A stretch of DNA of 60,914 bases, filler included, from Basidiobolus ranarum (lineage: Eukaryota): the NCBI GenBank assembly GCA_040143965.1. It is 6 parts of 6 records of this genome, joined end to end, with 100 filler letters (N's around TTAATTAATTAA, not from the genome) between each part and the next. Parts side by side here need not be neighbours in the genome. Positions count along the whole stretch, not along the records: positions 40,707 to 50,763 come from JASJQH010000747.1; 5 more parts are not named here. One strand, written 5' to 3'. The notes beneath the pieces were generated by a model. That model made no database searches. It had not been told where the DNA came from and saw only the letters and a list, made by a program, of their open reading frames with translations. Made by a program: the position numbers and the translations under genes. Shown in pieces: positions 20,362-60,914 of this stretch (position 1 is the first letter of the stretch; each line of letters starts with the position of its first letter).

Positions 20362-20381
20362 GTAATCCTTGTGCAGGGGCC

Positions 20382-20412
<31 letters not shown>

Positions 20413-22837: not shown

Positions 22838-23027
22838 TGTTAAAGTATTTGGGAGCCTGTTGGAAGTGGTTTAGAGAATTAGAGAAATTGGTGTTTTCAT
22901 GTATTGATTTATTGAGTATAAAGTAGAAATTTATACTTTTGTCATGATCTAAGCAAACTGACGTATCAAAGATGTTACAAAAGGTCCCAGAAGCATGTGT
23001 GCAAAGCTTGGGGCTTCTGGATAACAC
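22838..23027 (-). mobile_element. Partial copia LTR (3' half)
   Basis: TGTTAAAGTATTTGGGAGCCTGTTGGAAGTGGTTT is nearly identical to the end of the LTR at 50290-50638. Confidence 0.8.
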
Positions 23028-27557: not shown

Positions 27558-27801
27558 CTTCTTCAGGTTGTAGTGATGTACCACTTTCTATTCCTCTTTG
27601 CAGCATTTGCGTAACTTCGGATCAGCCCAGATTCAACGTTTTATCTCACAACAAAATCTTTCTACAGCAATGAAAACTTCCCATTTTAGGCAAACATCGG
27701 ATAGTTTTTAGAACGCTAGCATCAATACCCCAACTTAAAGCCTATATATACGGCAATGCAGTCGCGTATTGAATAGCACATCAGCTAAAAACTACTTCAA
27801 G

Positions 27802-30435
27802 ATGCGTTTTCTTCTCTTAGTGCCTCTTTTGGCAGCTGCTGTGGCTTTCCCCGCTGAGGACTCAACCAATGTCAACCTCAAGAAGCGCGCTTTGACATGT
27901 TCTGGAGCTACCTACGATGTACCTGCATTCAGCACTTGCATTGAGAACTGTAATATGGTAAGTGACATACGCATGCTTCAGTACATTCGTGGTCATGCTA
28001 AATTAACTATGATTGTTCATTCTAATAGAAAGCCGGTCTGTTATTCTATAACGACTTCTCTAAGGATCCCACCAGCCCTGGTTTCATCAAGTCTCTTTCA
28101 TACGAATGTGACTCTGCCAACCCCGACCGTACCTCCTTTATGACAAAGGCTGGTATCTGTATGGTTGGCTGCACTACCGCTGAGCAAGATGGTTATACCA
28201 ATGGGTATAAAGCCATGTGTGGTTGGTATACTGAACACAAGAATGATGTTTGCACACCTGCAGTGAGCTCTACTTCAGTTATTCCTGAGCCCACTACATC
28301 AAGTATCCCTGAGACCCCATCTCCCTCAGCCATTGAATCTGTCACCCCTTCTATAACTGTCACCTCCAGTTCCGCCTCCGTTACCGATTCTTCATCTGCT
28401 TCCGAAGTTGTTCCAACATCTCCTCCCACCTCAGTATCCGTCACTCCCACAGCGAGCCCGATTCCACCTTCTGGCAAATGTGTGACATACGATGGCCCTG
28501 TTCCAGCTCCATGTATTCAAGGTTGCCTTCTTGTAAGTATTATTTAATTTAAATACATAACATCTCTTTCTTTGACTAAGAAATCTTCGATGGCTTTAGG
28601 TTTCTGGTAGAAAACTCTGGAATCGCTACATCTGGAAGCCTACTAGCGAAAACTTCATCCCATCCCTTGGTTATGAATGTGATAGCAGTAATCCAAATCA
28701 CGAGGAATTTTTGAGAAACTCTGCGTCTTGTGTTCAAAGCTGTACTTCTTACCCTGACTACCAGAGCAAGCAAGGTCCTATTTGCAGCTGGTACGAGGCA
28801 AATAAGGCCAACACAATTTGTACAGCACCTGTCCCTACTGTGACTCCTACCACTACTGTTTCTGAAACTCCCTCACCTACTTGTCAACCATTCCGTGCAC
28901 CCGATCGTGGACAGTGCATCAACAACTGTAACGACGTTAGTATAATTTATGATTGAAATATTTCCGTACTTCTTTTATTTACTGTCTTTAAATATATAGC
29001 AAGCTGGAAAGACCTTCTTTGGCGACTATTCCCAAGATCCCCAAAATGCTAGCTTCATGAAATCCTTGTCTCTCGAGTGTGATTCGGAAGATTCTTCTCA
29101 CACTTCATTCATGATTAAAGCTGGTACCTGCATGGTTGGATGTTCAACAGAAGAGCAAGGAAAGTATACCGATGGATATAGAGCAGTATGTAACTGGTAC
29201 ACTGCAAATAAGCAAGGCGGTTTTTGTAACCCTAGTGCCACATCCGTGTCATCTTCTGTAGTCCAAACACCCACCTCAATCCCTACCAACTCTCCATCTG
29301 CATCGGTCAGTATCTCATCCACTATCAGCTCAACAGGTCCCACTCCTACATGTGTAGCAAGTGCCCCCTACACTGGCCCACTTTTCGGATCATGCATCAA
29401 CAACTGTAATGAGGTATGTGATTTGTGTATCACGTAAAGAAAATCTTAGATTCTAACTAAATTCTGGTTCATAGCAAGCAGGAAAGGTTCTCTTCGGTGA
29501 TTTCTCCAAGGATCCTACCAGCCCCAACTTGATCAAATCCTTGTCCTTTGAATGTGACTCAACCAACCCTCAACGTACTGCCTTCATGACTAAGGCTGGT
29601 ATTTGCATGGTTGGCTGCACTACTGCCGAACAAGACACTTATACCAACGGATACAAGGCCATGTGCAATTGGTATCAAGAACACAAAAATGATACACCTG
29701 GAAACTGCCCCGGTGAAAATACTACTAGTGTGTCCTCGAGTTTGCCTACTACCATTCCTACTTCAGTTGTCCCAACTATATCTGCATCTGTCACCACCTC
29801 CCCATCTGTCACTGCCTCTCCAGCCCCATCCAGTACCTGTACCCCAGGCGGCGGCCCTAGCTACAATGGACCAACTTTCAGTGCTTGCATTGATAACTGT
29901 AATGAAGTAAGTTACTGATACAGTGTGCAAATATTTCCTATTTATTTACATATTCTTTATTAATACAGCAAGCAGGAAAGGCTCTTTTCAGTGATTTCTC
30001 CAAGAACCCTAACAGCCCTAACCTGATCAAATCTTTATCCTTTGAATGTGACCCAACCAACCCTCAACGTACTACCTTTATGACCAAGGCTGGTATTTGT
30101 ATGGTTGGCTGCACCACTGCTGAACAAGATGTTTATACCAACGGATACAAGGCCATGTGCAACTGGTATGAACAGAACAAGAATGGTTCCCCTAATACTT
30201 GTACTGGTGAAAATACCTCCAGTGTTATTGTCATTCCTACTACTGTTGTCCCAAGCAACACTATTGTCCCAACTGGCTCTGCCACCGCTTCTCCTGCTCC
30301 ATCTGGTACTTGTACCCCTGGTGCCGCTCCTGCCTACACCGGTCCTACCTTCAGCACTTGTATCAACAGCTGCAATGATGTATGTTAATAATTTTAGATG
30401 ATTAGTAGAGGGGAACATCGACGTGATGGGAAACC
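27802..30435 (+). CDS. Secreted protein with at least 5.3 tandem ~80-aa Cys-rich domains separated by S/T/P linkers; 3' truncated
   Basis: Signal peptide MRFLLLVPLLAAAVA, Kex2 site KKR, repeat Y.GP.FS.CI.NCN-intron-.AG..F..DFS.DP..P..IKSLS.ECD..NP.RT.FMTKAGICMVGCTTAEQD.YTNGYKAMC.WY..K; phase-0 introns start at 27958, 28533, 28936, 29414, 29907 and 30380. Confidence 0.88.
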
Positions 30436-30535
30436 NNNNNNNNNNNNNNNNNNNNNNNNNNNNNNNNNNNNNNNNNNNNTTAATTAATTAANNNNNNNNN
30501 NNNNNNNNNNNNNNNNNNNNNNNNNNNNNNNNNNN
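30436..30535. other. Artificial contig linker
   Basis: N44-TTAATTAATTAA-N44. Confidence 0.98.
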
Positions 30536-40265: not shown

Positions 40266-40382
40266 TGTTGAAGTATTTTGGGATCCTGTTGGAAGCGGTT
40301 TGGAGAACTAGGGAAATTGGCAGTTTTCACTTATTGATTTATTGAGTTGAAAGTTTTATTTATAGTTTTGTCAATATGTAAA
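40266..40382 (-). mobile_element. Partial copia LTR
   Basis: TGTTGAAGTATTTTGGGATCCTGTTGGAAGCGGTTTGGAG matches the LTR family end. Confidence 0.7.
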
Positions 40383-40606: not shown

Positions 40607-40706
40607 NNNNNNNNNNNNNNNNNNNNNNNNNNNNNNNNNNNNNNNNNNNNTTAATTAATTAANNNNNNNNNNNNNNNNNNNNNNNNNNNNNNNNNNNNNN
40701 NNNNNN
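40607..40706. other. Artificial contig linker
   Basis: N44-TTAATTAATTAA-N44. Confidence 0.98.
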
Positions 40707-40842
40707 ATGGTTCATTCAATATCATGGGATCTGTCTATTTTGTTAATCAAGAAATACATATAAAGTTATGGTAAATGTGAAAGTATATTCACATCTATAT
40801 ATATAAATATTTCTGGCTCTATTGCAAGGGATTGGGAAGAAA

Positions 40843-40917
40843 TGCTGATCCAACCAGGGACTGAATCTGGGACCCAATCAACTCTAGCAAGTGGCTCCGA
40901 CCACTGAGCTACCAGTC
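40843..40917 (-). pseudogene. Degenerate tRNA or tRNA-derived SINE head
   Basis: GACTGGTAGCTCAGTGGTCGGAGC (A box, D arm) ... CCCAGATTCAGTCCCTGG (decayed B box, T arm); anticodon and acceptor stems broken. Confidence 0.6.
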
Positions 40918-41349
40918 TTTATACTCTGGCTTCTATCAGGCTATGTTTCAGCATAATATATTGACACTACATACAAAGAAGCGACCAGCACATGTCCGTT
41001 CTATCAAATTCTTAAATTAAGCATTAAATATCGAATAGCCATTTACTAGAAGTCCTATACTGGTGATGTACTAGTGTGTTTTCTACAAACTTGAAATTGA
41101 GCAATTGTTCAAAACCAAATTCTTCAAATTACAGGATCACCGACAGGTACAAAACATCACCATAGATTTACCCACCGTTATCCCTCTACATTTACTCACG
41201 TTTATCTTTGCAACAATGGTATACGCCGTACCACAAATAACACCAACAACGAAAGTAAAATTCAATATTTATATTTCTTCCATCTGTTTAATTAGGTTAC
41301 ATGAATATCTTGTTATCTGCATGACGATGGAAGTGAGTAGAAATTAGTT

Positions 41350-44300
41350 TTAAATTTGTTTCTGTAACTCGTTAAATTTTCTTGCTAGAGTACGCCCTAT
41401 TTCAGCCATCGGTAAAGGTCTGTCCATGTCTCGATGTGTACAGTTAATGTCGAAAATCTCAATATCACCAAGAATGTAAGGTTTCCACAAGTCAGGAGAC
41501 ACTAGCGGGATAGACCGATGCTCCACTTTTGTTGCTCGAAAGAAAATTGCGTTATCGCTATAAACAGGTGGTGTAAACCCCTTCAATATCTCGAGATTAT
41601 TTTTGATGACATTGTGCGTTTTTTCCCATAAATATTCGCCGGCATTTGGATCACCTTCGTCACAATAGCGATCTAAAAATCTGATGTACCAACTATCTCT
41701 GTCCGCCTCTGTTTCGTAGTTTGGCGGTGAATATTCCGGATTGATATCTAAAAGAGCAAGTAGCGCTACCTTTTCTCCTTGTTCTTTGAGGCGCGTCGCA
41801 ATGCTGTGAGCAATATAAACGCCTAAAGACCATCCAAGTAGATGATATGGTCCATTAGACTGAACTTTACGTATTTGTTGAATATAATCGGATATCATAT
41901 CATCCATTGTTTTCGCCACCGGTGTCTCGTTGTTGAGTCCGCGAGCCTGTAGACCATATATCGGCTGATCAGGGCCTAAATGTTTAGATAGACCAATGTA
42001 GCCCCAACTTAAACCGGAAACGGCGTGAATACAGAAAAGAGGAGCTCGAGAGCCTTGAGTATTTAAAGGAAGCATTACTGAAAAAGAATTTCGTTGGTGG
42101 TTAGTATCTTTTTCAAGTAGACGTTGCGCCAATTTCGCAACAGTAGGGGCTTCAAATAGCGTGTGTAGAGCAATTTCGACACCCAACATGGTTCGAATAC
42201 GGTTGAGCATCTTAACGGCGAGCAGAGAGTACCCACCAAGCGCAAAGAAATTATCGCAGCGTCCGACAACGTCCAGGTTGAGAGTTTCAGCCCAGATTTG
42301 GGACAGTGCTTCCTCAATTTCTCCTTTCGGTGCTTCGTAAATCTGATGAACAAAGTCACCCTCATCTGGCTCTGGCAATGCTCGGCGGTCTAGTTTGCCG
42401 TTAGATGTCATGGGAAACGTTTCCAGGCGTACAAATGCAGATGGAATCATATATCCAGGCAGTTTACTTTCTAGGTGGACTCGCAACTTGCTAGAGAGCT
42501 GTTCGTCAAATTCAGCTGTGATGTAAGCGATTAAGCGCTTATCACCATCTTTGTCCAGCGCAAGTACAATGGACTCTCGCACCTGGGGATGCTTCATGAG
42601 GAGTGTCTCAATCTCCCCGGGTTCAATTCGAAATCCGCGAATCTTTATCTGAAAATCGTTACGACCCAAAAATTCGATGTTGCCATCTGGTAGATAACGA
42701 GCTAAATCACCAGTTTTGTACATGATTGAACCTTCCAGTGGACAGAAGTGGTCACTTATGAATTTTTCAGCAGTCAACTCGGGTCGGTTTAAGTAACCGC
42801 GTGCAACACCGACTCCCCCAATGTATAATTCTCCTATTGCCCCAAGCGGCACCGGTTGTCCTTGCTTGTTAAGTAAATATATCCGAGCATTTGCAATTGG
42901 ACGGCCGATAGATACCTTTCCATTTGTAAGAGTATTGCACTCACTTGTCCAAATCGTAGCTACATGAGTTTCAGTTGGGCCATAGGCATTGTATATGACA
43001 CCCTGATGAATCATATTCTGAATCAATGTTGAATTAGGTGCCTCCCCTGTTAATATCAATGATAGTGGTTTACTCAAGCTTTGTAGATTTCTCCCATCCT
43101 GCAGAAGCGCAGGTGGTAATATTGCGTGAGTTATTCCATTTATCTCCAAATACTTCCAAAGTTCATCGCGATCTTGACGGACCATATCGGTTGGGATGTA
43201 CAAATTTGCCCCGCGACTTAAGGTTAATAAAATTTCCCAGATACTCACGTCGAAGCTGAAAGATGCAAACTGTAGAACTCGACTGGAAGGCTGAATTTCA
43301 AAGCCGGCCGAAGGAGCCATAATGAGGTTCACGATTGATTTATGTTCCATCATTATTCCCTTTGGCATACCAGTGGAGCCGGATGTGTAAATCACATAGG
43401 CAAGATGTTTTGCAGTCAACGTTTCTACCTTTGGATTAGTAGTGGATGAGTTCAAAGTTCTATCCAGATCCAGTACAGTGAGCGATGCAAGGGTATCATT
43501 GCCTATTGCTCGTCTACCTATCTCATCAGCTATCAGAATCACCGGTTTTACATCAGCAAGAATGTACCCGAGCCTTTCACTCGGATACACTGGATCAAGC
43601 GGTATAACCGCACCGCCAGCTTTCAAGACCGCCAAAAAGGTTACAACAATCGCTGGACTACGCGCCATACACACTGCAATATACATATCTGGTTGAACAC
43701 CCATATCTATTAGTTCATGCGCCAGACGGTTTGCACGCGCATTCAGCTCAGCATAACTAAATACACAATCCTCATATGTTACCGCGGCTGCGTGAGGAGC
43801 ACGCTCGACAATATCTTCAAATAGATGGTGAATACAGAGAAGATCTGGATATGGTGAAGCGGTTTCATTCATTGTTTCGATCAAAGTTTTGCGTTCCTCA
43901 TTAGGAAGTATTTCAAGTTGCGAAACAGGTGCATTTGGTGAATGTTGCAAAGTATCCACCAGACTCTGTAGTGCCTTTTGCATGTAGTCACACACACGAG
44001 CTGGATCATGGGGATAAACGATTTGAGCGGTCAAACCCAGCGAATCGCCAAAATCTTCCACAGAAAGGAGTATTGAATAGTTGGAGCGTTCTTGTGTACT
44101 CAAAATTTCAACTCCAGGTACCGTTGAGCCGACACCTAGTGTCGTAGCATTGTGGCGGTAATTTAGAAGTGTACTGAAAAGTGGTACCCCGGCTGGTAAT
44201 GCTGCACAACGCTGGGCTATAGAAAGAGACGCATGTTCATGCTCAAGCAACATTGCCAAACACTTATGGGTATGAAGCACGGTTTCTAGAACGCCCCGCT

Positions 44301-47300
44301 CATTCACATCTACACGGAATGGTAATGTGTTGATGAATAATCCCATAGCTTTGTCGGCTCCTTCACCTGCGTGCATTCGCCCAAATAATACTGTGCCAAA
44401 AACCACCCGTTCTTGGTCACTGGCGCATGCTAGAACTTGTGCCCACGCCAGATGAAATAAACTGGCCAAGGTCACACCTAATGTTTTGGCTTGAAAGCGA
44501 AGTCGTTCATTTAACTCTTGCGATAACATTTGATGTGCCTCTGTGACCTGTGAACCATCACAGTAGACGTCGGAAAGTCCGAATGGGAGTGTCGGTGCAT
44601 CAACATCACCTAACATATCAGAAAAGAACTTTTCATGCTCTTGATTGCTCAGTCCTGTGCGGGATTGCGCAACTAAGTTTCGGAAATGCTGCGCAGTTGG
44701 CAAATCGCTTTCCCGATTGTTAAAAAATGCCTCCACCTCAGATTGCATCACATCTACCGTAGAGTGGTCACCGATGAGATGGTGAAGCAACTGAAGAAGA
44801 GACCAGCGACCATTACTCTCTTGCGTGATCGCATAGCTCAACAAAGGAGCTTTGGTTATGTCGGTGCGATAATAACAAGGGTCATATTTTTCTAATAACT
44901 GTTCGGAAATTGGCCCATTGGCTGGATTAAAAGTATATTCGGTGACTGCAAGCGACGCTTGACGGCAAACAACCTGGACAGGTGTGGATATATTCTTCCA
45001 AATAAAGGCAGTGCGCAGGATATCATGGCGATCTACTATCCGCTGGATGATATTCAGGTACTTATCAAGCAACTTCCGGTTTTCAAAGGTCATTTGGGTG
45101 ATGACTAAATAGGGATCCCCTTTGTAAGGATCCCCTTTAGCAGCCAAGAGATGATGAAATAGAATTCCATCTTGTAGTGGGGTTAAGCCATAGATATCTT
45201 GGATGTTGGCCACGCCGCCAGGGATCACTTCTGTTATATAGTCAATTTCGGTTTGCGAGAGGTTGACCAGTGAAAGTAAGTCTGGAGTTATTTTTTCAAT
45301 ACCAGGCTTAATTAATCTGGGGGGTATGACTACTTCACGACGTTGGAGTGTTTGGGCAAGCTCACAGAGAGTTGGTTTTTCGAATAACGTACGTATAGAT
45401 ATCTTTAAATTAAGGCGACTTAGACGTTCTATCATCTGCACGGCGAGAAGTGAATTCCCTCCCAGCGAGAAGAAATTATCATGACGACCAATTTCATCCA
45501 AATTTATTAACTCAGTCCAAATCTTCGTCAGTGTAGCCTCGATCTCTCCTTGTGGTGCTTCATAAGATTTCTGGGTAAAATCCTCTCTATCTGGTGCTGG
45601 TAGTGCCTTGCGATCTACCTTTCCATTGGATGTTAATGGTAAAGTATTTAGACGCACGAAAGCGGCTGGCAACATATAATCAGGAAGGTTGGCTGCAATT
45701 AAATCGCGTAGCGCGCTGATAAGTAGCTTCTCTCTGGGTTCCGCCACAATATAAGCTACTAAATGCTTACTGCTGTCCTTGCCCATTACCAGTACGACGA
45801 CTTCCTTAACCTGGGGGTGCCTAATGAGTAGCGCTTCGATCTCGCCTGGTTCGATCCGAAAACCGCGAATCTTAATCTGGTGATCTTTACGTCCAAGAAA
45901 CTGAATGTTGCCATCAGGAAGATAACGAGCCAGATCTCCGGTTTTGTACATACGAGCTCCTTCTTGCTTGCTGAATGGATCGGGAAGAAATCTTTCGTCA
46001 GTCAACTCTGGCCGATTTAAGTATCCGCGCGCGACGCCGGCCCCGCCTATATACAATTCGCCAGTTGCCCCTAATGGCACTGGTTGGCCTGCCCCGTCCA
46101 ACAGGTATATCTGCTTGTTCGCTAATGGTCTTCCAATAGGGATACTGCTTGTTGACTGTTCTTTGTGCAGAGGGATTGTATAAAACGTAGCGAAGGTAGT
46201 GCATTCAGTTGGACCATACCCGTTAATCAGTTGCTGTGGAGGAGTGTTGCCTATTATATTGTTGATAACTGCAGGATTGATAATATCTCCTCCAAAAAGT
46301 AGATATTTTAACTGCGGAAAGATAGGTTGCAGTGGTTCCGCCATTTGGACTAACAAAGCAGGCGTTAAAAACAAGACATTAATTTTCTGCCGTTGCAAAC
46401 ATTGCACAAATATATTTGGGGTGAGAACAGTGTAGTGGTCTACAACGACAAGGGTACCGCCATTTAACAAAGGCGCCCACATTTCAAAAGTAGTTGCGTC
46501 GAAAGCTGGGTTGCATACAAAACCAACACGATCGTTAGGCCCGATGTCAGTGAAGCCATTGTTGATAACTAGAGAAGCAATGGCCCGATGAGGCACCAAC
46601 GCACCGTTTGGGGTGCCAGTTGAACCGGAGGTGTACATTACATATGCCACATCCAAATCTGGAGAGAATAGGTCAAGATTGGCTATTGGTATATCTAAGG
46701 AATTTTTGAAACAAGAGGGGATACGGAACAACTGCATGTTCTCGGTGAGTGAAACATTGGTATGTGTATCAGTTATCAATAGTCGAGCTGCACAATCCAA
46801 AATTATCGAAGTTTGCCGCTCCACGGGAGCATGAGGATCAATAGGAACATATGCTGCCCCCACTTTAAGAACAGCCAATTGAGCAATAACTAGCTCCATA
46901 GAACGCTCAAGCATGGTAGCAATAAAATCACCTGGTTTAATACCTAACTCGACAAGGCGATGTGCGATGTGATTGGCGCTTGTATTTAAATCCCTGTAGC
47001 TTAATGATCGATCTTTGTATACTAATGCGATTGCGTGTGGCGCACGCTGAGATTGCTTTTCAAATAATTGATGAATCCCTTGATTTTCGGGAAATTCACG
47101 CTCCGTTTTGTTCCAGTTAACCAGGAGTTGTTGTCGCTCGTAGGTATGAAGTAAATCGATACCTCCAATTGGGATTGTAGGCTCGTTGGTTAGTGCTTCC
47201 AGTAGTTTCAGGAAACGGGGCATGTGTCCGATCTCGTTATTAACACTAGTTAGTGTTGGGTCCTTTCTGGTGTCAAAAAGTGCATCATTTAGAACATCAG

Positions 47301-48870
47301 GGTCATAAATCCATCGAAAGCTTCCATCTTTTGAACACAATTGAATTGTGAGGTGATCTCCGCGAGCCGCTTCTTGGGAGCTTTGAGTGCCAGTATGTGC
47401 TGGAATGTTGTTGATATCGTCGGAAGTATGATCTAATACTAAGGCTATAACGATATGCCAAGGTCGTAATGAACGCAACCCACTAACATCTTGGAGTTCT
47501 GGGCGACGTGCAATGAGGTCAAGAGGAAATGTAGAGTTCTTTTTCAGAAGTGAACATTCAGTCTCTACCTTTGCACGAACCTCGTTGAAGCAATCCTGTA
47601 AATCGATTTCAATCTCCATTGGCACTACATTGGCTAAGGAATTGCCCATCGCGGATTTAGTTATCATCGGCGCCCAACCCAAATGGAGATGCCTCTTCTC
47701 AGTGATCCGTTTTAAATAAATCAGGAAAGCACTCAAAATGAACTCGACACGTTCAACTTCTGGAAGCTTCAACAAATTGTTGGGGATATTCCATTCAGTC
47801 GCATGCCAGCGTCGTACTGTTCCCGACGTATCATGAACGAAAGGGTGATGAAGTGAGTTGAAACGTTGCAAACGTCTTACCCAGAAAGTCTCTCGTTCTG
47901 CTAACTTTTCATAGGTCTCAGTTAATATGTGGGCATCTGCGTCCGATATCATGGGTAATTGATCGCCTGTGCGAAGCCCTAGTTGTTGCGCCAGTTTCTG
48001 GGCTTCAAATGGCTCTCCAATAAGACTGGTGAATGCGCTAATGCTAACGGTATCACTACCTGTCGCTACATGCCAACCATCAGAGTCGATTTTCAGCAGG
48101 GTTCCTGGTCTACTTTCAGAGCGCTTCTCAAGGACTACCAAGTTTAACACGCGCACAATGCAATTAGACAGCAATAATTTAGGTGTAGCCAACGAGTTTG
48201 GATGAAGATCTCCAAAGTTTAGAGCCCGCACCAAAGCAGAGAGATTTTGAGCCGTTAGCTGCCAGCGCAAAAAACCAGCACCTAAAGGGCGGCGACGACG
48301 TGGATAAAAACTTCTTTTCGCCAAGTCTTGAGGGCAGGATCTTAATGTTCCCAATGCCAAGTTTTCTACTAATTCAGTGAAACCTTTACTCGCTGCTTGG
48401 TAACACTTCAAGTTAAGTGACAGAGCGTTGTCAGTGGAAGAGATGTGTACCGGATACTGTACGTACACATTCCCGGCATCAACTTTACTGATAATGCGGT
48501 GCCAGGTAATTGCGTAGGTGTTTTGGAGCTCTAATAGGGCCCAGGAAGTAGCATGTGTTCCGGCGTAACGAGGTAAGGGAGCGTCATGATAATTAATTGC
48601 GTGACTCATCCTATCTAATAGCGACTCCGGTAGAATGATCGGGTTGACTATCGAAAATAGTACATCCGCTGATCTCTCGTCTAGCATGGTACTAAGCTCC
48701 TCTACTGTGCCCACGCAAGTTATTTTTTCGTTCAAAGCCCAATCTGTAACCAACTTGTCTGTTGGTAACACAGCTTCAATGATATGGCCTGCTGCACATA
48801 GGCGTTTTGCACATTCGATGGTTAGTGTGGTGCCACCGACGATAATACATGAGAAGGAATGTCTGCTCAT
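41350..48870 (-). CDS. Intronless bimodular NRPS, F-C*-A-T-E/C-A-T-TE, 2506 aa, bacterial type
   Basis: Formyltransferase NYHDAPLPRYAGTHA; A domains YTSGSTG.P, YGPTE, YKTGDL, QIKIRGFRIEPGEIE, NGK.DR (twice); T domains LGGNSLL and LGGYSLL; C domain with FHHLLAAKGD and HHLIGD; TE with GWSLG and CTHRDM. Confidence 0.97.
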   Translation of the reverse strand: MSRHSFSCIIVGGTTLTIECAKRLCAAGHIIEAVLPTDKLVTDWALNEKITCVGTVEELSTMLDERSADVLFSIVNPIILPESLLDRMSHAINYHDAPLPRYAGTHATSWALLELQNTYAITWHRIISKVDAGNVYVQYPVHISSTDNALSLNLKCYQAASKGFTELVENLALGTLRSCPQDLAKRSFYPRRRRPLGAGFLRWQLTAQNLSALVRALNFGDLHPNSLATPKLLLSNCIVRVLNLVVLEKRSESRPGTLLKIDSDGWHVATGSDTVSISAFTSLIGEPFEAQKLAQQLGLRTGDQLPMISDADAHILTETYEKLAERETFWVRRLQRFNSLHHPFVHDTSGTVRRWHATEWNIPNNLLKLPEVERVEFILSAFLIYLKRITEKRHLHLGWAPMITKSAMGNSLANVVPMEIEIDLQDCFNEVRAKVETECSLLKKNSTFPLDLIARRPELQDVSGLRSLRPWHIVIALVLDHTSDDINNIPAHTGTQSSQEAARGDHLTIQLCSKDGSFRWIYDPDVLNDALFDTRKDPTLTSVNNEIGHMPRFLKLLEALTNEPTIPIGGIDLLHTYERQQLLVNWNKTEREFPENQGIHQLFEKQSQRAPHAIALVYKDRSLSYRDLNTSANHIAHRLVELGIKPGDFIATMLERSMELVIAQLAVLKVGAAYVPIDPHAPVERQTSIILDCAARLLITDTHTNVSLTENMQLFRIPSCFKNSLDIPIANLDLFSPDLDVAYVMYTSGSTGTPNGALVPHRAIASLVINNGFTDIGPNDRVGFVCNPAFDATTFEMWAPLLNGGTLVVVDHYTVLTPNIFVQCLQRQKINVLFLTPALLVQMAEPLQPIFPQLKYLLFGGDIINPAVINNIIGNTPPQQLINGYGPTECTTFATFYTIPLHKEQSTSSIPIGRPLANKQIYLLDGAGQPVPLGATGELYIGGAGVARGYLNRPELTDERFLPDPFSKQEGARMYKTGDLARYLPDGNIQFLGRKDHQIKIRGFRIEPGEIEALLIRHPQVKEVVVLVMGKDSSKHLVAYIVAEPREKLLISALRDLIAANLPDYMLPAAFVRLNTLPLTSNGKVDRKALPAPDREDFTQKSYEAPQGEIEATLTKIWTELINLDEIGRHDNFFSLGGNSLLAVQMIERLSRLNLKISIRTLFEKPTLCELAQTLQRREVVIPPRLIKPGIEKITPDLLSLVNLSQTEIDYITEVIPGGVANIQDIYGLTPLQDGILFHHLLAAKGDPYKGDPYLVITQMTFENRKLLDKYLNIIQRIVDRHDILRTAFIWKNISTPVQVVCRQASLAVTEYTFNPANGPISEQLLEKYDPCYYRTDITKAPLLSYAITQESNGRWSLLQLLHHLIGDHSTVDVMQSEVEAFFNNRESDLPTAQHFRNLVAQSRTGLSNQEHEKFFSDMLGDVDAPTLPFGLSDVYCDGSQVTEAHQMLSQELNERLRFQAKTLGVTLASLFHLAWAQVLACASDQERVVFGTVLFGRMHAGEGADKAMGLFINTLPFRVDVNERGVLETVLHTHKCLAMLLEHEHASLSIAQRCAALPAGVPLFSTLLNYRHNATTLGVGSTVPGVEILSTQERSNYSILLSVEDFGDSLGLTAQIVYPHDPARVCDYMQKALQSLVDTLQHSPNAPVSQLEILPNEERKTLIETMNETASPYPDLLCIHHLFEDIVERAPHAAAVTYEDCVFSYAELNARANRLAHELIDMGVQPDMYIAVCMARSPAIVVTFLAVLKAGGAVIPLDPVYPSERLGYILADVKPVILIADEIGRRAIGNDTLASLTVLDLDRTLNSSTTNPKVETLTAKHLAYVIYTSGSTGMPKGIMMEHKSIVNLIMAPSAGFEIQPSSRVLQFASFSFDVSIWEILLTLSRGANLYIPTDMVRQDRDELWKYLEINGITHAILPPALLQDGRNLQSLSKPLSLILTGEAPNSTLIQNMIHQGVIYNAYGPTETHVATIWTSECNTLTNGKVSIGRPIANARIYLLNKQGQPVPLGAIGELYIGGVGVARGYLNRPELTAEKFISDHFCPLEGSIMYKTGDLARYLPDGNIEFLGRNDFQIKIRGFRIEPGEIETLLMKHPQVRESIVLALDKDGDKRLIAYITAEFDEQLSSKLRVHLESKLPGYMIPSAFVRLETFPMTSNGKLDRRALPEPDEGDFVHQIYEAPKGEIEEALSQIWAETLNLDVVGRCDNFFALGGYSLLAVKMLNRIRTMLGVEIALHTLFEAPTVAKLAQRLLEKDTNHQRNSFSVMLPLNTQGSRAPLFCIHAVSGLSWGYIGLSKHLGPDQPIYGLQARGLNNETPVAKTMDDMISDYIQQIRKVQSNGPYHLLGWSLGVYIAHSIATRLKEQGEKVALLALLDINPEYSPPNYETEADRDSWYIRFLDRYCDEGDPNAGEYLWEKTHNVIKNNLEILKGFTPPVYSDNAIFFRATKVEHRSIPLVSPDLWKPYILGDIEIFDINCTHRDMDRPLPMAEIGRTLARKFNELQKQI

Positions 48871-48956
48871 TATTTGCTACAGTTTCCTAGCTAGTGTCTA
48901 CTGATTTCAAATTTATAAGGGTTATTTTGGTCTGTCCGAAATCCGTATTTTAACAC

Positions 48957-48966
48957 CTTATATAAG
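48957..48966 (-). promoter_or_regulatory. Candidate TATA box of the NRPS
   Basis: TATATAA about 90 bp upstream of the ATG. Confidence 0.4.
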
Positions 48967-49519
48967 ATAGTTCTAAGGGGTCTATTTATGCTCGTAATCA
49001 TTATAAGAAACAGGGGCGCTATAAATCTAAATTTTCCCCAGGAGCGCAGGGGAATTATAGCAATGCTTAATTAAAGGTCGCAGGGCTAATGCACAGACAC
49101 GACGTAGTTGCGATTGAACAATTCGCACAATCAATATGAACTGTATGGTGATCCCTTGTCTTCCATATTTTCAGCCTACACTAGCCTTCAATCTAGCCTC
49201 ATACTTCTAATACTTACATATGCCGCCTGCTCTATGACTCACTAACATATGATTTCCCAAGGGTTAAGGGGGAAGGAACCACTTGGATACAATAGATTTT
49301 AATTTTGTTGAGTTACATTTTCTGCCTGGATACAAGGATATATGAATAATTGCTTTCTAACCAATTCTTGTCAGAGGGATACCAAACCCTTTCTGCATAT
49401 ATATATAAACAAATGCCACCTCAGAAGTGCAAAAATAGTGTTTTGTGAGAAAGAAAGACAAGTATGTGTGTAAATCAACCAAATTGGCCAGATTTGATGT
49501 AAATGCACATTTAAATAAG

Positions 49520-50289
49520 AATTAGAGAAATTGGTGGTTCCCACTTATTAATTTATTAAGTTGAAAGTTGACATTTATAGTTTTTTCAGGACGTAAGCAA
49601 ACCAACATGTAGAATGTGTTAAGGAAGGTCCCAAGAACATGTGTGCAAGGTTTGGGGCTTCTAGCATAAGTTTGAAAATTACATATATCTGAAAACTTCT
49701 AAGTTGGTAAATATATTCTAAGCAAATTCCTCATGCAAACAATGCGTAATATCTTAGTGGGATGCAAGATAACTAAATACTAAGCTATATATGCCTAGAT
49801 AGGTATATAGGCAATGCTAATTTCAACACTCTCCCTCAACTAAATAGTAATATAAATTAATCCTAACAAAGGTCCAAATTTCTATCTACCTAATGGTTTG
49901 GTTGATATATCTGTAATCATGTCTTCTGTAGAACAACAAGTTAAGTCAATAAGCACATTCTCTATAGTTTCTCTAATAAAAAGATATCTACTATCTATAT
50001 GCTTGCTTCTAACATGAAACATGGGATTTCTAACAAGTTTGATCCAACTTTGATTATCTTGAAACAGTATAGTTGGTTAATTTTGATTATAGCCCAAATC
50101 TTATAAGAGTTTTGATAACCATATTATTTTTTTTATTGCTTTACAGGCAGCTACATATTCTGCTTCTGTTATTAAAGGTACTATGGTAGGTAGTTTCTCT
50201 GAACTCTGAGAAATAGCCCCATTACAGCAAAGAAATAAGTATGCTGTTGTAGATCTCCTGTCTTCAATATCCACTCCTCCATTTGAATA
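49520..50289 (-). mobile_element. Ty1/copia 3' end: decayed RNase H, polypurine tract and 3' LTR
   Basis: DRRSTTAYLF...AISQSS...TEAEYVA, KHIDSRYLFIRE and DISTKPLG motifs with stops; PPT AGTTGAGGGAGAG (49841-49829) directly followed by the LTR start TGTTGAAATTAGC at 49828. Confidence 0.9.
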
Positions 50290-50763
50290 CATTGAAATTA
50301 GCATTGCCTAAACACCTATATAGTCATGTATAGCTTAGTACTTCTTTATGTTATATTTCACCAAGGTATTATCCATTTTTCTCAATTGGAATTTATTTAG
50401 AATATTTTTTGACCAACTTAAAAGTTATCAGATATATAGTTTTTCAAGCTTGTGCTAGAAGTCCCAAACTTTGTTCACATGTTCCTGGGACCTTCCTTAA
50501 CCTATTTTACATGTTGGTTTGTTTACATCTTGACAAACCCATAAATGTCAACTTTCAACTCAAGAAATCAATAAGTGAAAGCCACCAATTTCTCTAATTC
50601 TCCAAACCACTTCCAACAGGCTCCCAAATACTTTAACAGTTTATGAGCCCCAAGCTTGCACTCTCTGTAATGTCAACTTCTTAAAATTTTGGATCTTGTC
50701 CCTCTTCTGAAAAATGGATGTAATCAATAATCAAGTTTGGAAAATTAAAATGAAAATGCTGCT
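50290..50763 (+). mobile_element. Second copia element 5' end (LTR 50290-50638, PBS, decayed gag start), opposite orientation
   Basis: LTR ends ...CTTTAACA, then GTTTATGAGCCC (copia-type GGTTATGRGCCC primer site), then QVWKIKMKMLL, a copia gag N-terminal motif. Confidence 0.85.
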
Positions 50764-50863
50764 NNNNNNNNNNNNNNNNNNNNNNNNNNNNNNNNNNNNN
50801 NNNNNNNTTAATTAATTAANNNNNNNNNNNNNNNNNNNNNNNNNNNNNNNNNNNNNNNNNNNN
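50764..50863. other. Artificial contig linker
   Basis: N44-TTAATTAATTAA-N44. Confidence 0.98.
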
Positions 50864-51964: not shown

Positions 51965-53753
51965 AAATTGAAACAGAGATACATGCGAAACAAATTCGAA
52001 AGAACTTTTTTTGATTTATTAAGTCTTACCTTTGCGATCATGTCAATGTGATCTAATTTGGATGGATGACGGAAATGGATGTTTACTCAAACCTAAGATT
52101 ATTCACCATCTTAATCTGAGGCACATCGGTCAAATTCAGTACCCCAGTGGCTTATGATGTTTACTGGTAATCAGATGATTTAAATAGCATTCAAACCTTC
52201 AATAACTTTTGGAAAGTTGATTTTGCAGATAGTTCCATTGTTGATATCCAGCAAACAGGCTGTGAAATTCAATATATTAACATAATTTGCAACAAACTAT
52301 GATTCTGAATCTGGTGTGGTATTTTCATTGGCTAATGTACATGGGAAATAATGCAAAAGTTATGCTAGTACTCAAGACTGCTTCACTTTTTTTGATGCAG
52401 CCTGAAAATGACAATATATGCGCATTCCTTTTATGATTCAACTTCATATTTGTTACATTGATTAATGATCACCCAAATAATGGCCTTGGATAATGAGAAG
52501 GTGTACGCACTGCACTTGATGATGCAATCTATTCCTGAATTCATTACAGCTAGTGTAGATGAAGGGGGGAGAGGAATAGATATAAAAGTAGTAGAGATAG
52601 GTTGCCCAGTGAAAGAGTAAATGGGATTTTTAAAGAGGTATGGAATAGATGCATAAGGAATGAAAGGGGACAAAATTTTGCATGAGGTACAAAAGAGAAA
52701 AGAGGATGAAGTTTTAGGTTAATTTGGCACTAAAAGTATGTTGAAAATGACATGGCTTAAGCATCCATATAGTCATATAGTTAGCTACCTAAATATCACT
52801 ATGTTATTATTCAATATATTCATGAGGAATTTACGCTCAATATTGAGACCAACTTGGAAGTTTGAAGATTATATGATTATCTCAACCTTGTCCAAGAGAC
52901 CCTAAACTTTATACTCTACACGTTGGCTTGCCTACCACTTGACAAATATTTAATCCAGATACTATAATCGACCTCATCAGACAGAAAAAATACACCAAAC
53001 GCAACAATTAAATCACTTGCACTGAGGATTACTAACATAGAATCGACTACGGATCTAGCTGCCGAAGGACTTTCATAGCTTAACCCGCCAAAACTCATCA
53101 ACTATTTGGAACTATCAGAAGGTACAATCCTGATTAAGTTACTGGAGGATACGGGACTTTGCTATTTAGCCACAAGGGTAGGTCTGATGCACCATGTGTC
53201 CCAATAATGATTTGAATTATGTACTAGTTAAACTGCTTTTTCTTCAATTTGAGTCATACAGTGCATATGAAACCACGAAAGAGAAGAACTGAAATATTAT
53301 CACAGAATATAGGATATAAACACTATCTTCTAACAACAGAGAACCTTCCCTCCTTCTCTATATAAAGCAGACAAGAAAATGCAACACTGTTCTATTAACC
53401 AGTATTTGCTAAGCTATAAAGGTATTAGAGTTGACACTGAATCTAATTGAGTAAAGGGAAATGAATTTATTCAGTATGCTAAAAATTGAATTTTGTAGCA
53501 GAATTTAACATCCAATGCGCTAAGCATGATTTATCGATATTCAGAGGGTTAACTCTGATATTTCCACGAGCTATATATATTTACCCACAACTAAGCATTA
53601 AGACCAGATTTGCAAGCATTATACTATAGTATATGATTTGTTAATCTAATTCCAGTATCCGGTCACAGCCAAGTCTAGAGGTTACTTTTATCACAAACGC
53701 GAAATATTGCATTTAGATTGATATTTTCATTTGATCGTAGATGAGAAAAAGGA

Positions 53754-53915
53754 AGGAGGCGGCGCATAGCGCTCACCTCCCACAAACAAAAATTTAACAG
53801 TCGAGACACCCCTAAGGATGTTCGCGTCAAGGACCCTGAGACGCTGTGCAATGCTCAATTTCCAAGACGAAGAGCTCACCTACATGATCGTAAGCTCCCC
53901 CTGCCAGGTAAGTAT
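53754..53915 (-). ncRNA. U1: U1 spliceosomal snRNA
   Basis: Reverse complement starts ATACTTACCTGGCAGGGG; loop I GATCATGTAG, loop II ATTGCAC, CTCGACTG, Sm site AATTTTTG, 3' GC hairpin; about 162 nt. Confidence 0.95.
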
Positions 53916-57451: not shown

Positions 57452-58791
57452 ACATAAAAATCACCTGTGAATAGTCAAGACCATTTAACTGTAATAAGGA
57501 ACAAACACACTTATTAGATCATTTTGTAAGATACCGTACATATCCATCAAATAAACAAATGGATTATTGAATGACCACTTTTTAAAATTGTTTGGACCTC
57601 CGCTTATTTTATTTCCCATTTTTCATCAACTTTCCTATTTCTACTCAAACCTGCCCCATCATCTGGTTCTGCCTTTACTTGATCGGAGCATGCCAATATT
57701 TCCTAAAATGGCTTTTTTGACATTATTAATCTGAACAATAATTCCAAGTCTCTTAATCCTAATCTTCCTACAGTACAGTATACATCTACCTATATTTTGT
57801 AAACATTCTATCTTAAAGGAACGACCTAACCGAGTGGAGTTGAAGGCTTAGAGGCCCAGGGGGAATCAGGTGATGGTGGAACTCTAGGAGTCTACCTCGA
57901 GCTCGGGAAACCTTTCAAGTTACATGATTACCGAATCCATATTAAGTAATTAATAGCTTCATACAAGGAAAATGTAACAAGTGCAATTCGAAACAAGATA
58001 CCCAATTCAACACTGGGAAATCCCTTTACCTCAGCTGAAGTATTCTTAATAAGTTTACATGACATAATAATTCGGTTAAAATTATACGACGTTTAACTTA
58101 ACCAGATTGACTTTTTCTTCCGATCGGGTTGATGTTAACCATTTTTCGTAATAATAATCTAGTTCGAAGGGTTCAATTAATCGAACATTAATCACTCTGA
58201 TGATTCAATTTTTTACATAATTGTATGAATGAGGTAAGCTTGTATTGCAAATATTTATTGATGTTATTTATTGCTTTTTATTACCCATTTAATCGATTTC
58301 AAGATCTTTACGTGAAATTCCAGAATCTTCTCTATTTAAGACTCCACACGGCATGAATATTGAACCGATAATATAGCAAATAAGTCAAGATAGTTCAACA
58401 AAGAAGCCAATTCACCCGACAATATGCAAAAGAGTTTTGTTGATAATTTTCATATCGAGTTTGATCTAAACCTACGTTAATGACATCTGAAAACTAAAAT
58501 GGTGAGAATAGATGGCTATAAGGATGTGGCTTAGAAAAAAGAATCAGTAACCAATGATGAACCATTATTCTTCATCAATGAGACTGAAAACATGAACTAT
58601 CAATAGGAAATGATTTGATTGATTCTAAACCAAACTCAATATCACGTCACTATTCTATCAGACGTGGATAGTCACGCTTTTCATGAGTGAAAGTAAAGAA
58701 ACCAAACATGTACTAGAAATTGACTCAATCCAAATATCATTATAAATTGAACCAAGAGCTAGGAGTTGGAACTTATTTCTCTTCCTCAAAA

Positions 58792-59847
58792 ATGACTACA
58801 AAAAACACTCAAATTATCTTCAAGAAAATCCCCGAGGGTATGCCTGTCGTAGGCGAAGACATCGAGGTGGTCACCAAAGATTTCGATGTCAACCGTGTTA
58901 CTCTCAAGGACAATGATGTTCTCCTTCACAATTTGTACATGTCAGTGGATCCATACATGCGCGGTAGAATGCGTCCAGCTAAGATCAAATCATACATCTC
59001 AGCTTTCACACTTGGTGAAGTTATGCAAGCCGGTGGTGTCAGTGAAGTTATTAAATCCAAGAATCCTGAATTCAAAGAAGGCGATATTGTCAGTGGTATG
59101 ATCGGTTGGGAGAACTATACTCTCGTTTCTGAAGGTAAGGATTTGCGCAAGATTGAAGGTGCTCGTGAGTCGTCCATTCCATTGTCGTATTATCTGGGAA
59201 TTCTTGGTATGCCTGGTATGACTGCGTACATTGGTTTGTTCCACATTGGAGAGCCTAAGGAAGGTGAAACCATCTTCATCTCAGCTGCATCGGGTGCCGT
59301 TGGTCAAGTGGTTGGTCAGATTGCCAAGGTCAAAGGACTTCGAGTTGTAGGTACTGCTGGAGATGACTCCAAGGTTGACTACTTGGTGAAAGAGTTAGGG
59401 TTCGATGCTGCATTCAATTATAAGAAAGTTGACTTGAACCAAGAATTATCATCATCATGTCCCAAAGGTATTGACATTTACTACGAGAATGTTGGTGGTA
59501 AAATGTTGGATGCTGCATTGGAACACTGTAATGATTTTGCACGTATCCCCGTATGTGGTATGATTTCACAATACAATCGTTCATCCGACCCTGAGCCAGT
59601 TTACAACACCTTGATGATATTAACTAAGCGAATCAAGATGCATGGCTTTATCGTATTCGACATTGAACATTTATACGCTACCCAGTTCGCCAATGATGTT
59701 CCTAATTGGTTGAAGGAAGGTAAGATTAAGTATAAAGAGGACCTCATGGAAGGCATCGAAAATGCTCCTGAAGCATTCCTTCGTATTCTTCGAGGTGAAA
59801 ATTTCGGTAAACAAGTAGTGAAACTTGCTGATCCATCTGGCAAATAA
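58792..59847 (+). CDS. NADP-dependent alkenal/one oxidoreductase (PTGR/LTB4DH family, MDR), copy 1
   Basis: SVDPYMRGRM, LGMPGMTAY, SAASGAVG, GIDIYYENVGG, CGMISQYN, GENFGK; start set at the ATG downstream of TATAAA (58741). Confidence 0.93.
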   Translation: MTTKNTQIIFKKIPEGMPVVGEDIEVVTKDFDVNRVTLKDNDVLLHNLYMSVDPYMRGRMRPAKIKSYISAFTLGEVMQAGGVSEVIKSKNPEFKEGDIVSGMIGWENYTLVSEGKDLRKIEGARESSIPLSYYLGILGMPGMTAYIGLFHIGEPKEGETIFISAASGAVGQVVGQIAKVKGLRVVGTAGDDSKVDYLVKELGFDAAFNYKKVDLNQELSSSCPKGIDIYYENVGGKMLDAALEHCNDFARIPVCGMISQYNRSSDPEPVYNTLMILTKRIKMHGFIVFDIEHLYATQFANDVPNWLKEGKIKYKEDLMEGIENAPEAFLRILRGENFGKQVVKLADPSGK

Positions 59848-60216
59848 GCTTCGATCATATAAAAGAATGCCATAATTTGAAAAAAAAGGTATATCGGATT
59901 CAACAGTTTTATATGGAAAATGAGATTCAAATTCGATGATTATTGCATATTATTATCCTATTAAAAACGAATCCCATACAATTCTCGATAACACGTAAGA
60001 CATGACCATTTATCGGATCTTATTTATCCTCAAGAGTCAGGTATTTGACGAAATTGAACAAAATCAAGTAATAAGATGACATTAAATAATCCTACAATGA
60101 TGCAATATAAACAGTAATTAGTAAGCTGACTAATGATATAGGATATTTGGAAGCAACTTAAAATCAATAAAACCAAGGCTAGTCTTTCACATCACCACAA
60201 AAAACTATTCTTCAAT

Positions 60217-60914
60217 ATGGCTTCCAAAAACACTCAAGTTATCTTCAAACAAGTCCCCGAGGGTATGCCTGTCGTAGGCAAAGACATCGAGTTGGTCACC
60301 AAAGATTTCGATGTTAACTCAGTCACTCTCAACGAGAATGATGTTCTCCTTCGCAACTTGTATATGTCGGTTGACCCATATATGCGTGGTAGAATGCGTG
60401 CTCCAGAAATTAAGTCATACTCTCCAGCTTTCACTCTAGGTGAGGTTATGTTAGCTGGTGGAGTCAGCGAAGTAATCAAATCCAAGAATCCTGAATTCAA
60501 AGAAGGTGATATTGTGAGTGGCATGATTGGTTGGGAGAACTACACCATCATCCGCGATAACAAGGATTTACGTAAAATCGAAGGTGCTGTCTTACCTGGC
60601 AGCAAGGGCCTACGTAAGATCGAGGGTGCTCGTGAATCATCCATTCCATTGTCCTACCACCTTGGTGTTCTCGGCATGCCTGGAATGACTGCATACGCCG
60701 GTTTGTTCAAGATTGGAGAACCTAAGGAAGGTGAAACCATCTTTATCTCTGCTGCATCAGGTGCTGTTGGTCAAGTGGTTGGTCAGATTGCCAAGGTTAA
60801 GGGGCTCCGAGTTGTAGGTACTGCTGGAGATGACTCCAAGGTTGAGTCCCTATTGAAAGAGTTAAAATTCGACGCCGCATTCAACTACAAGAAGGTTGAC
60901 TTGGATCAAGCTCT
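60217..60914 (+). CDS. Tandem paralog of the oxidoreductase, copy 2, 3' truncated
   Basis: MASKNTQVIFKQVPEGMPVVGKDIELVTKDF...SVDPYMRGRM...LGMPGMTAYAG...SAASGAVG; open to the window end. Confidence 0.92.
   Translation, partial: MASKNTQVIFKQVPEGMPVVGKDIELVTKDFDVNSVTLNENDVLLRNLYMSVDPYMRGRMRAPEIKSYSPAFTLGEVMLAGGVSEVIKSKNPEFKEGDIVSGMIGWENYTIIRDNKDLRKIEGAVLPGSKGLRKIEGARESSIPLSYHLGVLGMPGMTAYAGLFKIGEPKEGETIFISAASGAVGQVVGQIAKVKGLRVVGTAGDDSKVESLLKELKFDAAFNYKKVDLDQA

Follow-up and report, generated by a model that had tools for sequence, protein, structure and literature searches.

Does a fungal genome encode a nonribosomal peptide synthetase (NRPS) of bacterial type that begins with a formyltransferase, and if so, where did the gene come from? 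The question is raised by a 7.5-kb open reading frame (ORF) of Basidiobolus ranarum, a gut-dwelling, early-diverging fungus, at positions 41350 to 48870 of a 60,914-nt stretch of assembly GCA_040143965.1 (hereafter the window). The window consists of six contigs rather than one stretch of genome, and genes across its spacers are unlinked. The NRPS gene lies on a contig of 10,057 bp (JASJQH010000747.1, 40707-50763), bounded by spacers at 40607-40706 (lower) and 50764-50863 (upper). We consider it very probable that Basidiobolus gained this two-module, bacterial-type NRPS by transfer from a proteobacterium, and that the gene has since become codon-adapted and duplicated while remaining an intact single exon. 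The transfer of bacterial NRPS genes into Basidiobolus and Mortierella is already published; what is new here is the formylating starter, the first in a fungal NRPS within the literature searches that we made.

The frame and its domains

The gene (41350..48870, minus strand, as are all domain coordinates that follow) runs uninterrupted for 2506 codons plus a stop, with no intron. The stop-to-stop frame exceeds the ORF by two codons only, which makes the ATG at 48870 the earliest start available. In a tblastn comparison with its Mycetohabitans orthologue (see below), residues 5-2502 aligned in a single piece, and therefore no intron is needed. The domain order is formyltransferase (F), half condensation (half C), adenylation-carrier (A-T), dual epimerisation/condensation (E/C), A-T and thioesterase (TE). 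Pfam placed Formyl_trans_N at residues 57-166, Formyl_trans_C at 199-281, Condensation at 1224-1663 and Thioesterase at 2277-2387, along with two AMP-binding and AMP-binding_C and two PP-binding domains; about 300 residues between F and the first adenylation domain (A1) drew no Pfam assignment at first pass. A preliminary description of this locus, made from the DNA alone, had reported an intronless 7.5-kb ORF with an N-terminal formyltransferase, a dual E/C domain and a C-terminal TE, all of which are borne out by the 2506-aa translation, its Pfam matches and its motifs.

The F domain (47953..48870, aa 1-306; PF00551 and PF02911) opens the first module, preceding A1 and its carrier (T1), and is a two-subdomain, ArnA/Fmt-like formyltransferase with Asn93, His95 and Asp131. 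A sequence search of the PDB found ArnA and Fmt to be closest, with LgrA marginal (E 0.003). Across an alignment of the query with 22 short relatives (23 sequences), Asn93 and His95 are invariant, Asp131 is conserved in at least 90%, the NYHDAPLP motif is fixed, and the PLP-Y-G residues vary little or not at all. An AlphaFold model of the N-terminal region built from the same 23 sequences (mean pLDDT 87.7) matched complete two-subdomain formyltransferases over residues 6-306 (VIA; ArnA Z 29.3, Fmt Z 28.5); the LgrA F domain aligned with model residues 5-193 only (Z 18).

The stretch that follows (47086..47928, aa 315-595) is a half condensation domain, consisting of the C-terminal lobe only. 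In structure, model residues 319-576 are like the C-lobe found in NRPS condensation domains (Z 18.0 to TomBC over 222 aligned residues and 17.8 to TycC5-6), the match to TomBC covering its residues 270-527 in the VIA comparison; a weak Pfam Condensation match covers profile positions 241-342. A motif scan found no HHxxxD within this stretch. Because of these structural matches and the lack of HHxxxD, we read the starter as F (N- and C-subdomains)-half C-A-T rather than the LgrA layout. The compact F-A fusion of the LgrA type is not found here; an Fmt-type C-subdomain and a C-lobe of about 280 residues precede A1. A phmmer search with F plus half C against 1.84 billion representatives returned 7647 matches at E<=1e-3, of which 1311 clusters reach E<=1e-30; the library searched carries no organism names. 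About 140 of the 150 phmmer matches listed begin within roughly 60 residues of the protein start. Judged from these comparisons, the F plus half-C starter unit is widespread in bacteria.

The remaining domains form two modules. A1 (45586..47085, aa 596-1095) is followed by carrier domain T1 (45346..45534, aa 1113-1175; GGNSL serine at 1140), the dual E/C domain (43861..45228, aa 1215-1670), the second adenylation domain, A2 (42361..43833, aa 1680-2170), carrier domain T2 (42091..42348, aa 2175-2260; GGYSL serine at 2215) and a type I TE (41353..42078, aa 2265-2506; PF00975, GWSLG serine). Core motifs A5, A6, A7 and A8 are intact in both adenylation domains, as is the A10 Lys, and both carrier serines are present. 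The pattern for core motif A2 was matched in A1 only, the second adenylation domain's own version giving no pattern match. In the TE, Ser, Asp and His are all retained at their columns in an alignment with five bacterial relatives. TSGSTGTPNG, the A3 motif of A1, has Asn in place of Lys (residue 755; codon 46630-46632, minus strand); 976 of 984 collected motifs have Lys, seven Asn and one Arg. The Asn is common to both fungal paralogues (see below) and occurs in five bacterial NRPS adenylation domains of the collected set.

Pocket codes were placed by the GrsA position rule, giving DAFFLGGTFK for A1 and DVWIITAVAK for A2. Code tables would make the A1 code Val/Ile-like, the A2 code yielding no assignment. 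A hint of glycine from a very high PDB score to the second adenylation domain of LgrA was dropped, the score being the sum of two domain matches.

The two motifs by which PMC1894796 defines dual E/C domains are both present: HHLLAAKGD at 1239 corresponds to the N-terminal second His motif HH[I/L]xxxxGD, and HHLIGDH at 1363 to the active-site HHxxxD(G). The two occur together in five of 12 other proteins scanned. His at the Gly position of HHxxxDG is found in seven of the 12 (the five dual-motif proteins, the paralogue and one Mesorhizobium protein). The domain shares one clade with those of Photorhabdus and Xenorhabdus and, at greater distance, with arthrofactin- and syringopeptin-type Pseudomonas domains; condensation domains of the HHxxxDG type fall outside the dual E/C clade, on long branches. 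Directly after the N-terminal His motif we observed an in-frame 15-nt tandem duplication (45109-45138, minus strand; residues 1245-1254, KGDPY twice), at which the paralogue has a single NGDPY.

Relatives and phylogeny

Two database searches were made. One, seeded with the first 500 residues, gave 1187 matches among 8000 scored candidates, of which 120 are listed; the other, seeded with residues 1200-2506, also has 120 listed, in an order set by summed bits that favours long proteins. Among the 120 listed for the first 500 residues a single eukaryotic name appears, that of P0002, a 2189-aa protein 81% identical to the query. A candidate reading of P0002 as an orthologue from another species was rejected because contig 4 encodes a known B. 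ranarum protein without any mismatch (see below), so that the window belongs to the assembly of this species; P0002, on a separate 9866-bp contig of the same assembly, is a paralogue. Identity between the paralogues is 80-87% in the catalytic domains versus 70.5% in the half-C linker. Among the matches listed, P0002 alone is closer than the bacterial relatives, whose full-length identity does not exceed 54% (5.8 billion clusters).

Three entries share the architecture and have a similar length: the metagenomic P0011 (54%), a chromosomal cluster from Mycetohabitans spp., P0012 (54%), and P0013 (52%), a cluster that is also from Mycetohabitans and includes a gene on the M. rhizoxinica megaplasmid pBRH01 (WP_013428717.1). 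These Mycetohabitans proteins, of 2536-2537 aa, are 52-54% identical to the query at 100% query coverage. Mycetohabitans are Burkholderiaceae that live inside Rhizopus. The pBRH01 orthologue is a stand-alone gene beside a transposase gene, with a LysR regulator gene about 2 kb upstream, and therefore transfer of one gene would have been sufficient. At 52% GC, with 0.51 GC at third codon positions (GC3), this orthologue (L009 8890-16503) is low for Mycetohabitans, whose genomes have about 60% GC, and it may itself be mobile there.

Taken domain by domain, the best matches other than the paralogue are mixed: Glomeribacter for F (60%), Mesorhizobium for half C (38%), P0011 for A1 (62%), Mycetohabitans and Podila epicladia for the condensation domain (62%), P0087, an F-A-T-TE protein, for A2 (64%), and Mycetohabitans for TE (56%). 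Rhizobial proteins head the half-C matches (35-38%), and Mycetohabitans is absent among the best 14 shown. The search with residues 1200-2506 listed many arthrofactin-type Pseudomonas synthetases (45-46%) and six Mortierellaceae proteins (Podila, Mortierella alpina and Gryganskiella), all six without PF00551. No Dikarya protein is among the 240 rows listed by both searches. Neither B. meristosporus nor B. heterosporus is named in the two listings, the second of which favours long proteins. The named members of the F-starter family that are listed come from alpha-, beta- and gamma-proteobacteria and cyanobacteria, versus one fungal name; the Xenorhabdus and Photorhabdus starters belong to this same F family by both search and F tree. 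An exact-peptide-word search of bacterial genomes retrieved eight distant loci (30-38%), missed Mycetohabitans and was not used.

Six trees were built, all unrooted and omitting cluster members P0265-P0284 (at least 90% identical to their representatives). The fungal pair was nested among bacterial rows in all six, with 100% support for the pair. In the F-domain tree (45 rows) the pair (100) is sister to Glomeribacter (98). In the two condensation-domain trees (45 and 44 rows) the pair (100) joins Mycetohabitans, Mortierellaceae, Burkholderia gladioli and Podila in a group whose internal branching is unresolved, and this group is nested inside a dual E/C clade of Photorhabdus/Xenorhabdus, rhizobia and Pseudomonas. 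The Mortierellaceae condensation domains within that one clade are 51-62% identical to the Basidiobolus domain. The TE tree (22 rows) groups the pair with P0087, Glomeribacter and Mycetohabitans, again unresolved. A quick full-length tree from F to T2 (22 rows, the window sequence and 21 chosen; 2248 columns) placed the pair as sister to Mycetohabitans plus P0011 (SH-aLRT 100). A careful version, also of 22 rows, with P0125 dropped and Glomeribacter module 1 added, gave a polytomy and did not recover the sister relation to Mycetohabitans.

Domain-wise phylogenies, which the preliminary description had named as a check, therefore place the pair among bacteria in six of six trees, and not among vertically inherited fungal NRPSs. 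Its proposal of bacterial origin by horizontal transfer is strongly supported by this nesting, by the 1311 starter clusters and by the paralogue being the sole eukaryotic name among the 120 listed. The paralogue apart, the nearest relatives of each domain are bacterial, and we regard the bacterial origin of the gene as firm.

The contig and its fungal setting

The gene has 643 bp of flanking DNA downstream (35% GC) and 1893 bp upstream (34% GC), with longest open frames of 87-90 aa. The upstream flank holds two copies of a dispersed repeat that resembles a long terminal repeat (LTR), is about 355 bp long and has TGTT...AACA ends. A 5'-truncated copy at 49517..49828 (plus strand) lies 650 bp upstream of the ATG, and a second, inverted copy at 50292..50640 (minus strand) is 82% identical to it. 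The repeat recurs at 74-86% identity on contigs 2 (10204-11671), 3 (22834-23018) and 4 (40266-40382), and contig 6 holds a weak copy. Scans for sigma-70 promoters and terminators scored below or at shuffle level. On the other side of the gene, 430-500 bp past the stop codon, a tRNA-like fragment (40847-40925, minus strand) has a D-arm-like GGTAGCTCAGTGG and a degenerate T-arm; ARAGORN and Rfam made no call on it, and it may be the remnant of a tRNA-derived short interspersed element.

Codon usage also resembles that of the host. GC3 of the NRPS gene is 0.40, versus 0.37-0.51 in ten host frames, and its GC content is 45%, versus 52% for the Mycetohabitans orthologue. Relative synonymous codon usage correlates at 0.62 with the pooled host frames and at 0.34 with the Mycetohabitans gene, which in turn correlates at -0.02 with the host frames. 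The preliminary description had argued against contamination, and the argument holds: a shared LTR-like repeat, AT-rich flanks free of ORFs, host-like codon usage and a diverged paralogue together make contamination unlikely. These features of the sequence all favour integration of the gene in the fungal genome.

The six contigs measure 10,082, 10,079, 10,074, 10,071, 10,057 and 10,051 bp, in falling order, and are separated by artificial 100-nt spacers (N44-TTAATTAATTAA-N44) at 10083-10182, 20262-20361, 30436-30535, 40607-40706 and 50764-50863. Frames for a nucleoporin, a PHD protein, a kinase, an alcohol dehydrogenase, a major facilitator superfamily (MFS) protein, a trypsin and a deacetylase are all on contigs other than that of the NRPS. 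All but the trypsin were considered as neighbours of the NRPS gene and rejected because the spacers put them elsewhere; these six were kept as host codon references. Exons on contig 4 encode a 344-aa protein, interrupted by one intron of about 65 nt, that matches an NCBI Basidiobolus ranarum entry letter for letter. Contig 3 carries a U6 snRNA gene at its very start (20332-20443, minus strand; the match extends into the spacer) and contig 6 a U1 snRNA gene (53753-53915, minus strand).

Several other features of the window were noted. A tRNA-Leu(CAG) lies at 21020-21101. Two paralogues of a zinc-type alcohol dehydrogenase/oxidoreductase lie in tandem at 58717-59847 and 60142-60912 (plus strand); their DNA is 82-84% identical, and the window end cuts the second. 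A run of open frames of 118-172 aa (27739-30388, plus strand; 44% GC) contains a 259-nt repeat in three copies (28027, 29473 and 29967), and the six frames scanned there gave no Pfam match.

Predicted product, rival explanations and known systems

The domain content suggests how the enzyme would work. A1 would load a Val/Ile-like amino acid onto T1, and the F domain would then transfer a formyl group from N10-formyl-tetrahydrofolate to the amine of this carrier-bound residue. What remains of a former condensation domain, its C-lobe, probably has no other role than that of a rigid platform docking F onto A1. The dual E/C domain would epimerise the upstream residue, as its formyl-aminoacyl thioester, to the D form and join it to the residue loaded by A2. 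With the N-terminus blocked, hydrolysis is the simplest way in which the TE would free the product, predicted to be an N-formyl-D-Xaa-L-Yaa dipeptide in which Xaa would be Val/Ile-like.

Several observations weigh against this picture as a whole or in part. The A3 Lys-to-Asn change could weaken adenylation by A1, and the substrate calls are tentative, depending on pocket-code tables. The folate-site motif is NYHDAPLP instead of the SLLP form of Fmt and ArnA, yet it is invariant across the family. The P0002 model stops inside T2 and has no TE. The NRPS contig holds no fungal protein-coding gene; it is confined to 40707-50763, most apparent neighbours being on other contigs, and the linkage consists of 2.5 kb of flank and a repeat family. 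Some supports offered by the preliminary description also lose force. Its copia LTRs are indeed a repeat shared with contigs 2, 3 and 4, but the repeat is LTR-like only, the copia identity finding no support in the 30 ORFs of the window that were scanned, none of which contained a reverse transcriptase, integrase or other retroelement domain. Its TATA box is present (TATAAA at 48912-48917, 42-47 nt before the ATG) but was rejected as evidence, since such boxes occur in the window at chance level (76 observed versus 76.4 expected). Its "intron-rich genome" is backed directly by no more than the single intron of about 65 nt on contig 4, and indirectly by the split MFS and trypsin frames.

The remaining objections concern the donor, which the preliminary description had suggested to be a Burkholderiaceae endosymbiont. 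The identities (Mycetohabitans 52-54%, Glomeribacter 60% in F) and the quick tree favour such a donor. The polytomy of the careful tree takes in the fungal pair, Mycetohabitans, Glomeribacter, Photorhabdus/Xenorhabdus and rhizobia, and with p 0.457 an approximately unbiased (AU) test neither rejects nor shows a clade uniting the fungi with Mycetohabitans. Moreover, A2 is nearer to P0087 and a Podila NRPS than to the A2 of Mycetohabitans, and its code, DVWIITAVAK, differs from the Mycetohabitans DVWHISLIGK. With its different A2 affinity and pocket code, the Basidiobolus gene is no plain copy of its Mycetohabitans counterpart. Best matches that vary from domain to domain, together with the A2 code, suggest either a donor gene unlike those in Mycetohabitans today or module exchange before transfer. 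An endofungal Burkholderiaceae donor is our best guess from these comparisons, rather than a demonstrated source.

Could the 10-kb contig simply be bacterial DNA, from a contaminant or endosymbiont, that was co-assembled with the fungus? The lack of a fungal protein-coding gene on it, the intronless gene, and relatives that are bacterial, the closest at full length belonging to endofungal Burkholderiaceae, would agree with that. Both upstream repeat copies, however, have family members on contigs 2, 3 and 4, which carry eukaryotic features, and flanks of 1.9 and 0.6 kb at 34-35% GC, with no frame above 90 aa, are unlike gene-dense bacterial DNA. Codon usage tracks the host and not the Mycetohabitans gene, and the assembly contains a second copy at 81% identity, when the listed bacterial matches reach at most 54% at full length. 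We therefore hold co-assembly to be highly improbable. That the gene instead passed from fungus to bacteria, or is an old, vertically inherited fungal NRPS, is barely credible. It is true that the trees are unrooted and that Mortierellaceae hold close C-A-T modules (six of 120 listed), but the starter family comprises 1311 representative clusters at E<=1e-30, its named members among the matches listed span three classes of proteobacteria and the cyanobacteria versus one fungal name, and none of the listed Mortierellaceae matches has PF00551. Dual E/C domains and TE ends are, in addition, described as bacterial traits in the part of 10.1101/2020.08.21.262279 that we draw on.

Two further explanations accept the transfer and question its outcome. 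The gene might be a silent or decaying relic that yields no product, as the A3 change in A1 of both paralogues, a second copy that appears to lack T2-TE, and the absence of visible partner genes on the short contig would allow. We think this unlikely, given a 7.5-kb frame that is still open, with A5-A8 of both adenylation domains, the A10 Lys, the carrier serines, the His motifs and the TE triad all intact, and core motif A2 intact in A1 (the pattern missed that of the second adenylation domain). The same A3 Asn, moreover, occurs in bacterial NRPSs, and the greater divergence of half C than of the catalytic domains between paralogues is as expected under purifying selection. Alternatively, the N-terminal domain might fail to formylate the first residue, whether through lack of activity, use of a different donor or action on a different amine. 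Its folate-site motif and an architecture unlike that of LgrA, the only structurally characterised F domain, leave room for this. We judge it quite unlikely, as the Asn-His-Asp and PLP-Y-G residues are invariant or nearly so in 23 family members, the fold agrees with those of ArnA and Fmt (Z 28-29), and FT (formyltransferase) starters of related Xenorhabdus enzymes yield formyl peptides, as part of PMC8362031 reports.

A functional enzyme acquired from a proteobacterium would bring a new chemistry, N-terminal formylation, to the set of bacterial NRPSs that early-diverging fungi have taken up. The gene also places Basidiobolus in one gene pool with endofungal Burkholderiaceae and the Mortierella NRPSs, which bears on whether such transfers stem from intimate bacterial partners. 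As a small, stand-alone, intron-free gene it is an easy target for heterologous expression, which would give a first product for the large bacterial family of F, half C, A-T, dual E/C, A-T, TE enzymes. With the general phenomenon published, the gain is incremental. N-formyl peptides are classic ligands of vertebrate formyl-peptide receptors, and a fungal imitation of a bacterial signal is therefore conceivable. It is a very doubtful suggestion that Basidiobolus makes N-formyl-D-amino-acid dipeptides with an endofungal-type Burkholderiaceae enzyme, could thereby mimic that signal and steer innate immune cells, and carries in this gene a trace of past endosymbiosis; if true, the steering would take place in the amphibian gut or in human basidiobolomycosis, and the gene would be a genomic trace of a bacterial endosymbiont in the Basidiobolus lineage.

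The preliminary description knew of no characterised fungal NRPS with an F domain, in agreement with our literature searches, which found no paper on an F-domain NRPS from Basidiobolus or any fungus, nor on a Mycetohabitans formyl peptide. A eukaryotic parallel unknown to it is the mollusc FmtATR of the bursatellin-oxazinin pathway, according to part of PMC11869996. Like the Basidiobolus gene it is encoded by a eukaryote, has an N-terminal formylation domain and is suspected of ancient bacterial ancestry; unlike it, FmtATR is an animal enzyme of one module with a reductase end and introns. The comparison is one of architecture. By ending in TE and using a dual E/C domain, the Basidiobolus enzyme also departs from canonical fungal NRPSs, which have terminal condensation (CT) or reductase (R) ends and a separate E domain.

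Nearer parallels are the MpcA and MpbA synthetases of Mortierella alpina and the 'surfactin-like' NRPSs of Basidiobolus (Tabima et al. 2020; PMC7466969, in part), ascribed to (endo)bacterial donors, which share dual E/C domains, TE and host-like codon usage. The portion of 10.1101/2020.08.21.262279 consulted describes MpcA and MpbA as having dual E/C domains, a TE and a truncated starter condensation domain without the HH motif, gives nine introns for each gene, and proposes an endobacterial origin. The listed Mortierellaceae NRPSs differ in having no F domain, and mpcA and mpbA in their nine introns versus none here. The preliminary description was right that bacterial NRPSs are reported from these fungi but underrated how much was already in print: by the account in PMC7466969, as far as drawn on here, candidate acquisitions from bacteria make up 27-61% of the core genes of secondary metabolism in Basidiobolus, mostly intronless and with host-like codon usage, among them two-A-domain NRPSs with beta-proteobacteria as best matches. 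The words 'formyl', 'dual' and 'Burkholderia' have no occurrence in the main text of that paper, supplements aside.

Among bacterial systems, the initiation module of LgrA (PDB 5ES5, 6MFZ) is alike in placing a formyltransferase fold with its catalytic triad ahead of A-T, and differs in having neither the Fmt-type C-terminal subdomain nor a half condensation domain between F and A. The FT-starter NRPSs of Xenorhabdus and Photorhabdus, including SzeS, share the N-terminal FT, A-T, dual E/C and the NYH..PLP motif; among them, P0003 and P0006 are 47-50% identical over about 90% of the query. That P0006 is SzeS itself is a guess on our part, from residue order. N-formylation has been called rare, and the SzeS FT domain is functional (PMC8362031 and PMC8842026), giving formyl peptides in E. 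coli (PMC8362031). SzeS-type enzymes differ in being multi-modular and making longer peptides. The closest counterparts are the Mycetohabitans NRPSs (P0012 cluster and WP_013428717.1), for which literature searches returned no named product. They differ in the A2 code, in GC content (52% versus 45%) and in a poorly conserved half-C region, and they match the Basidiobolus enzyme in domain order, in length (2536-2537 versus 2506 aa) and in being encoded by a stand-alone gene.

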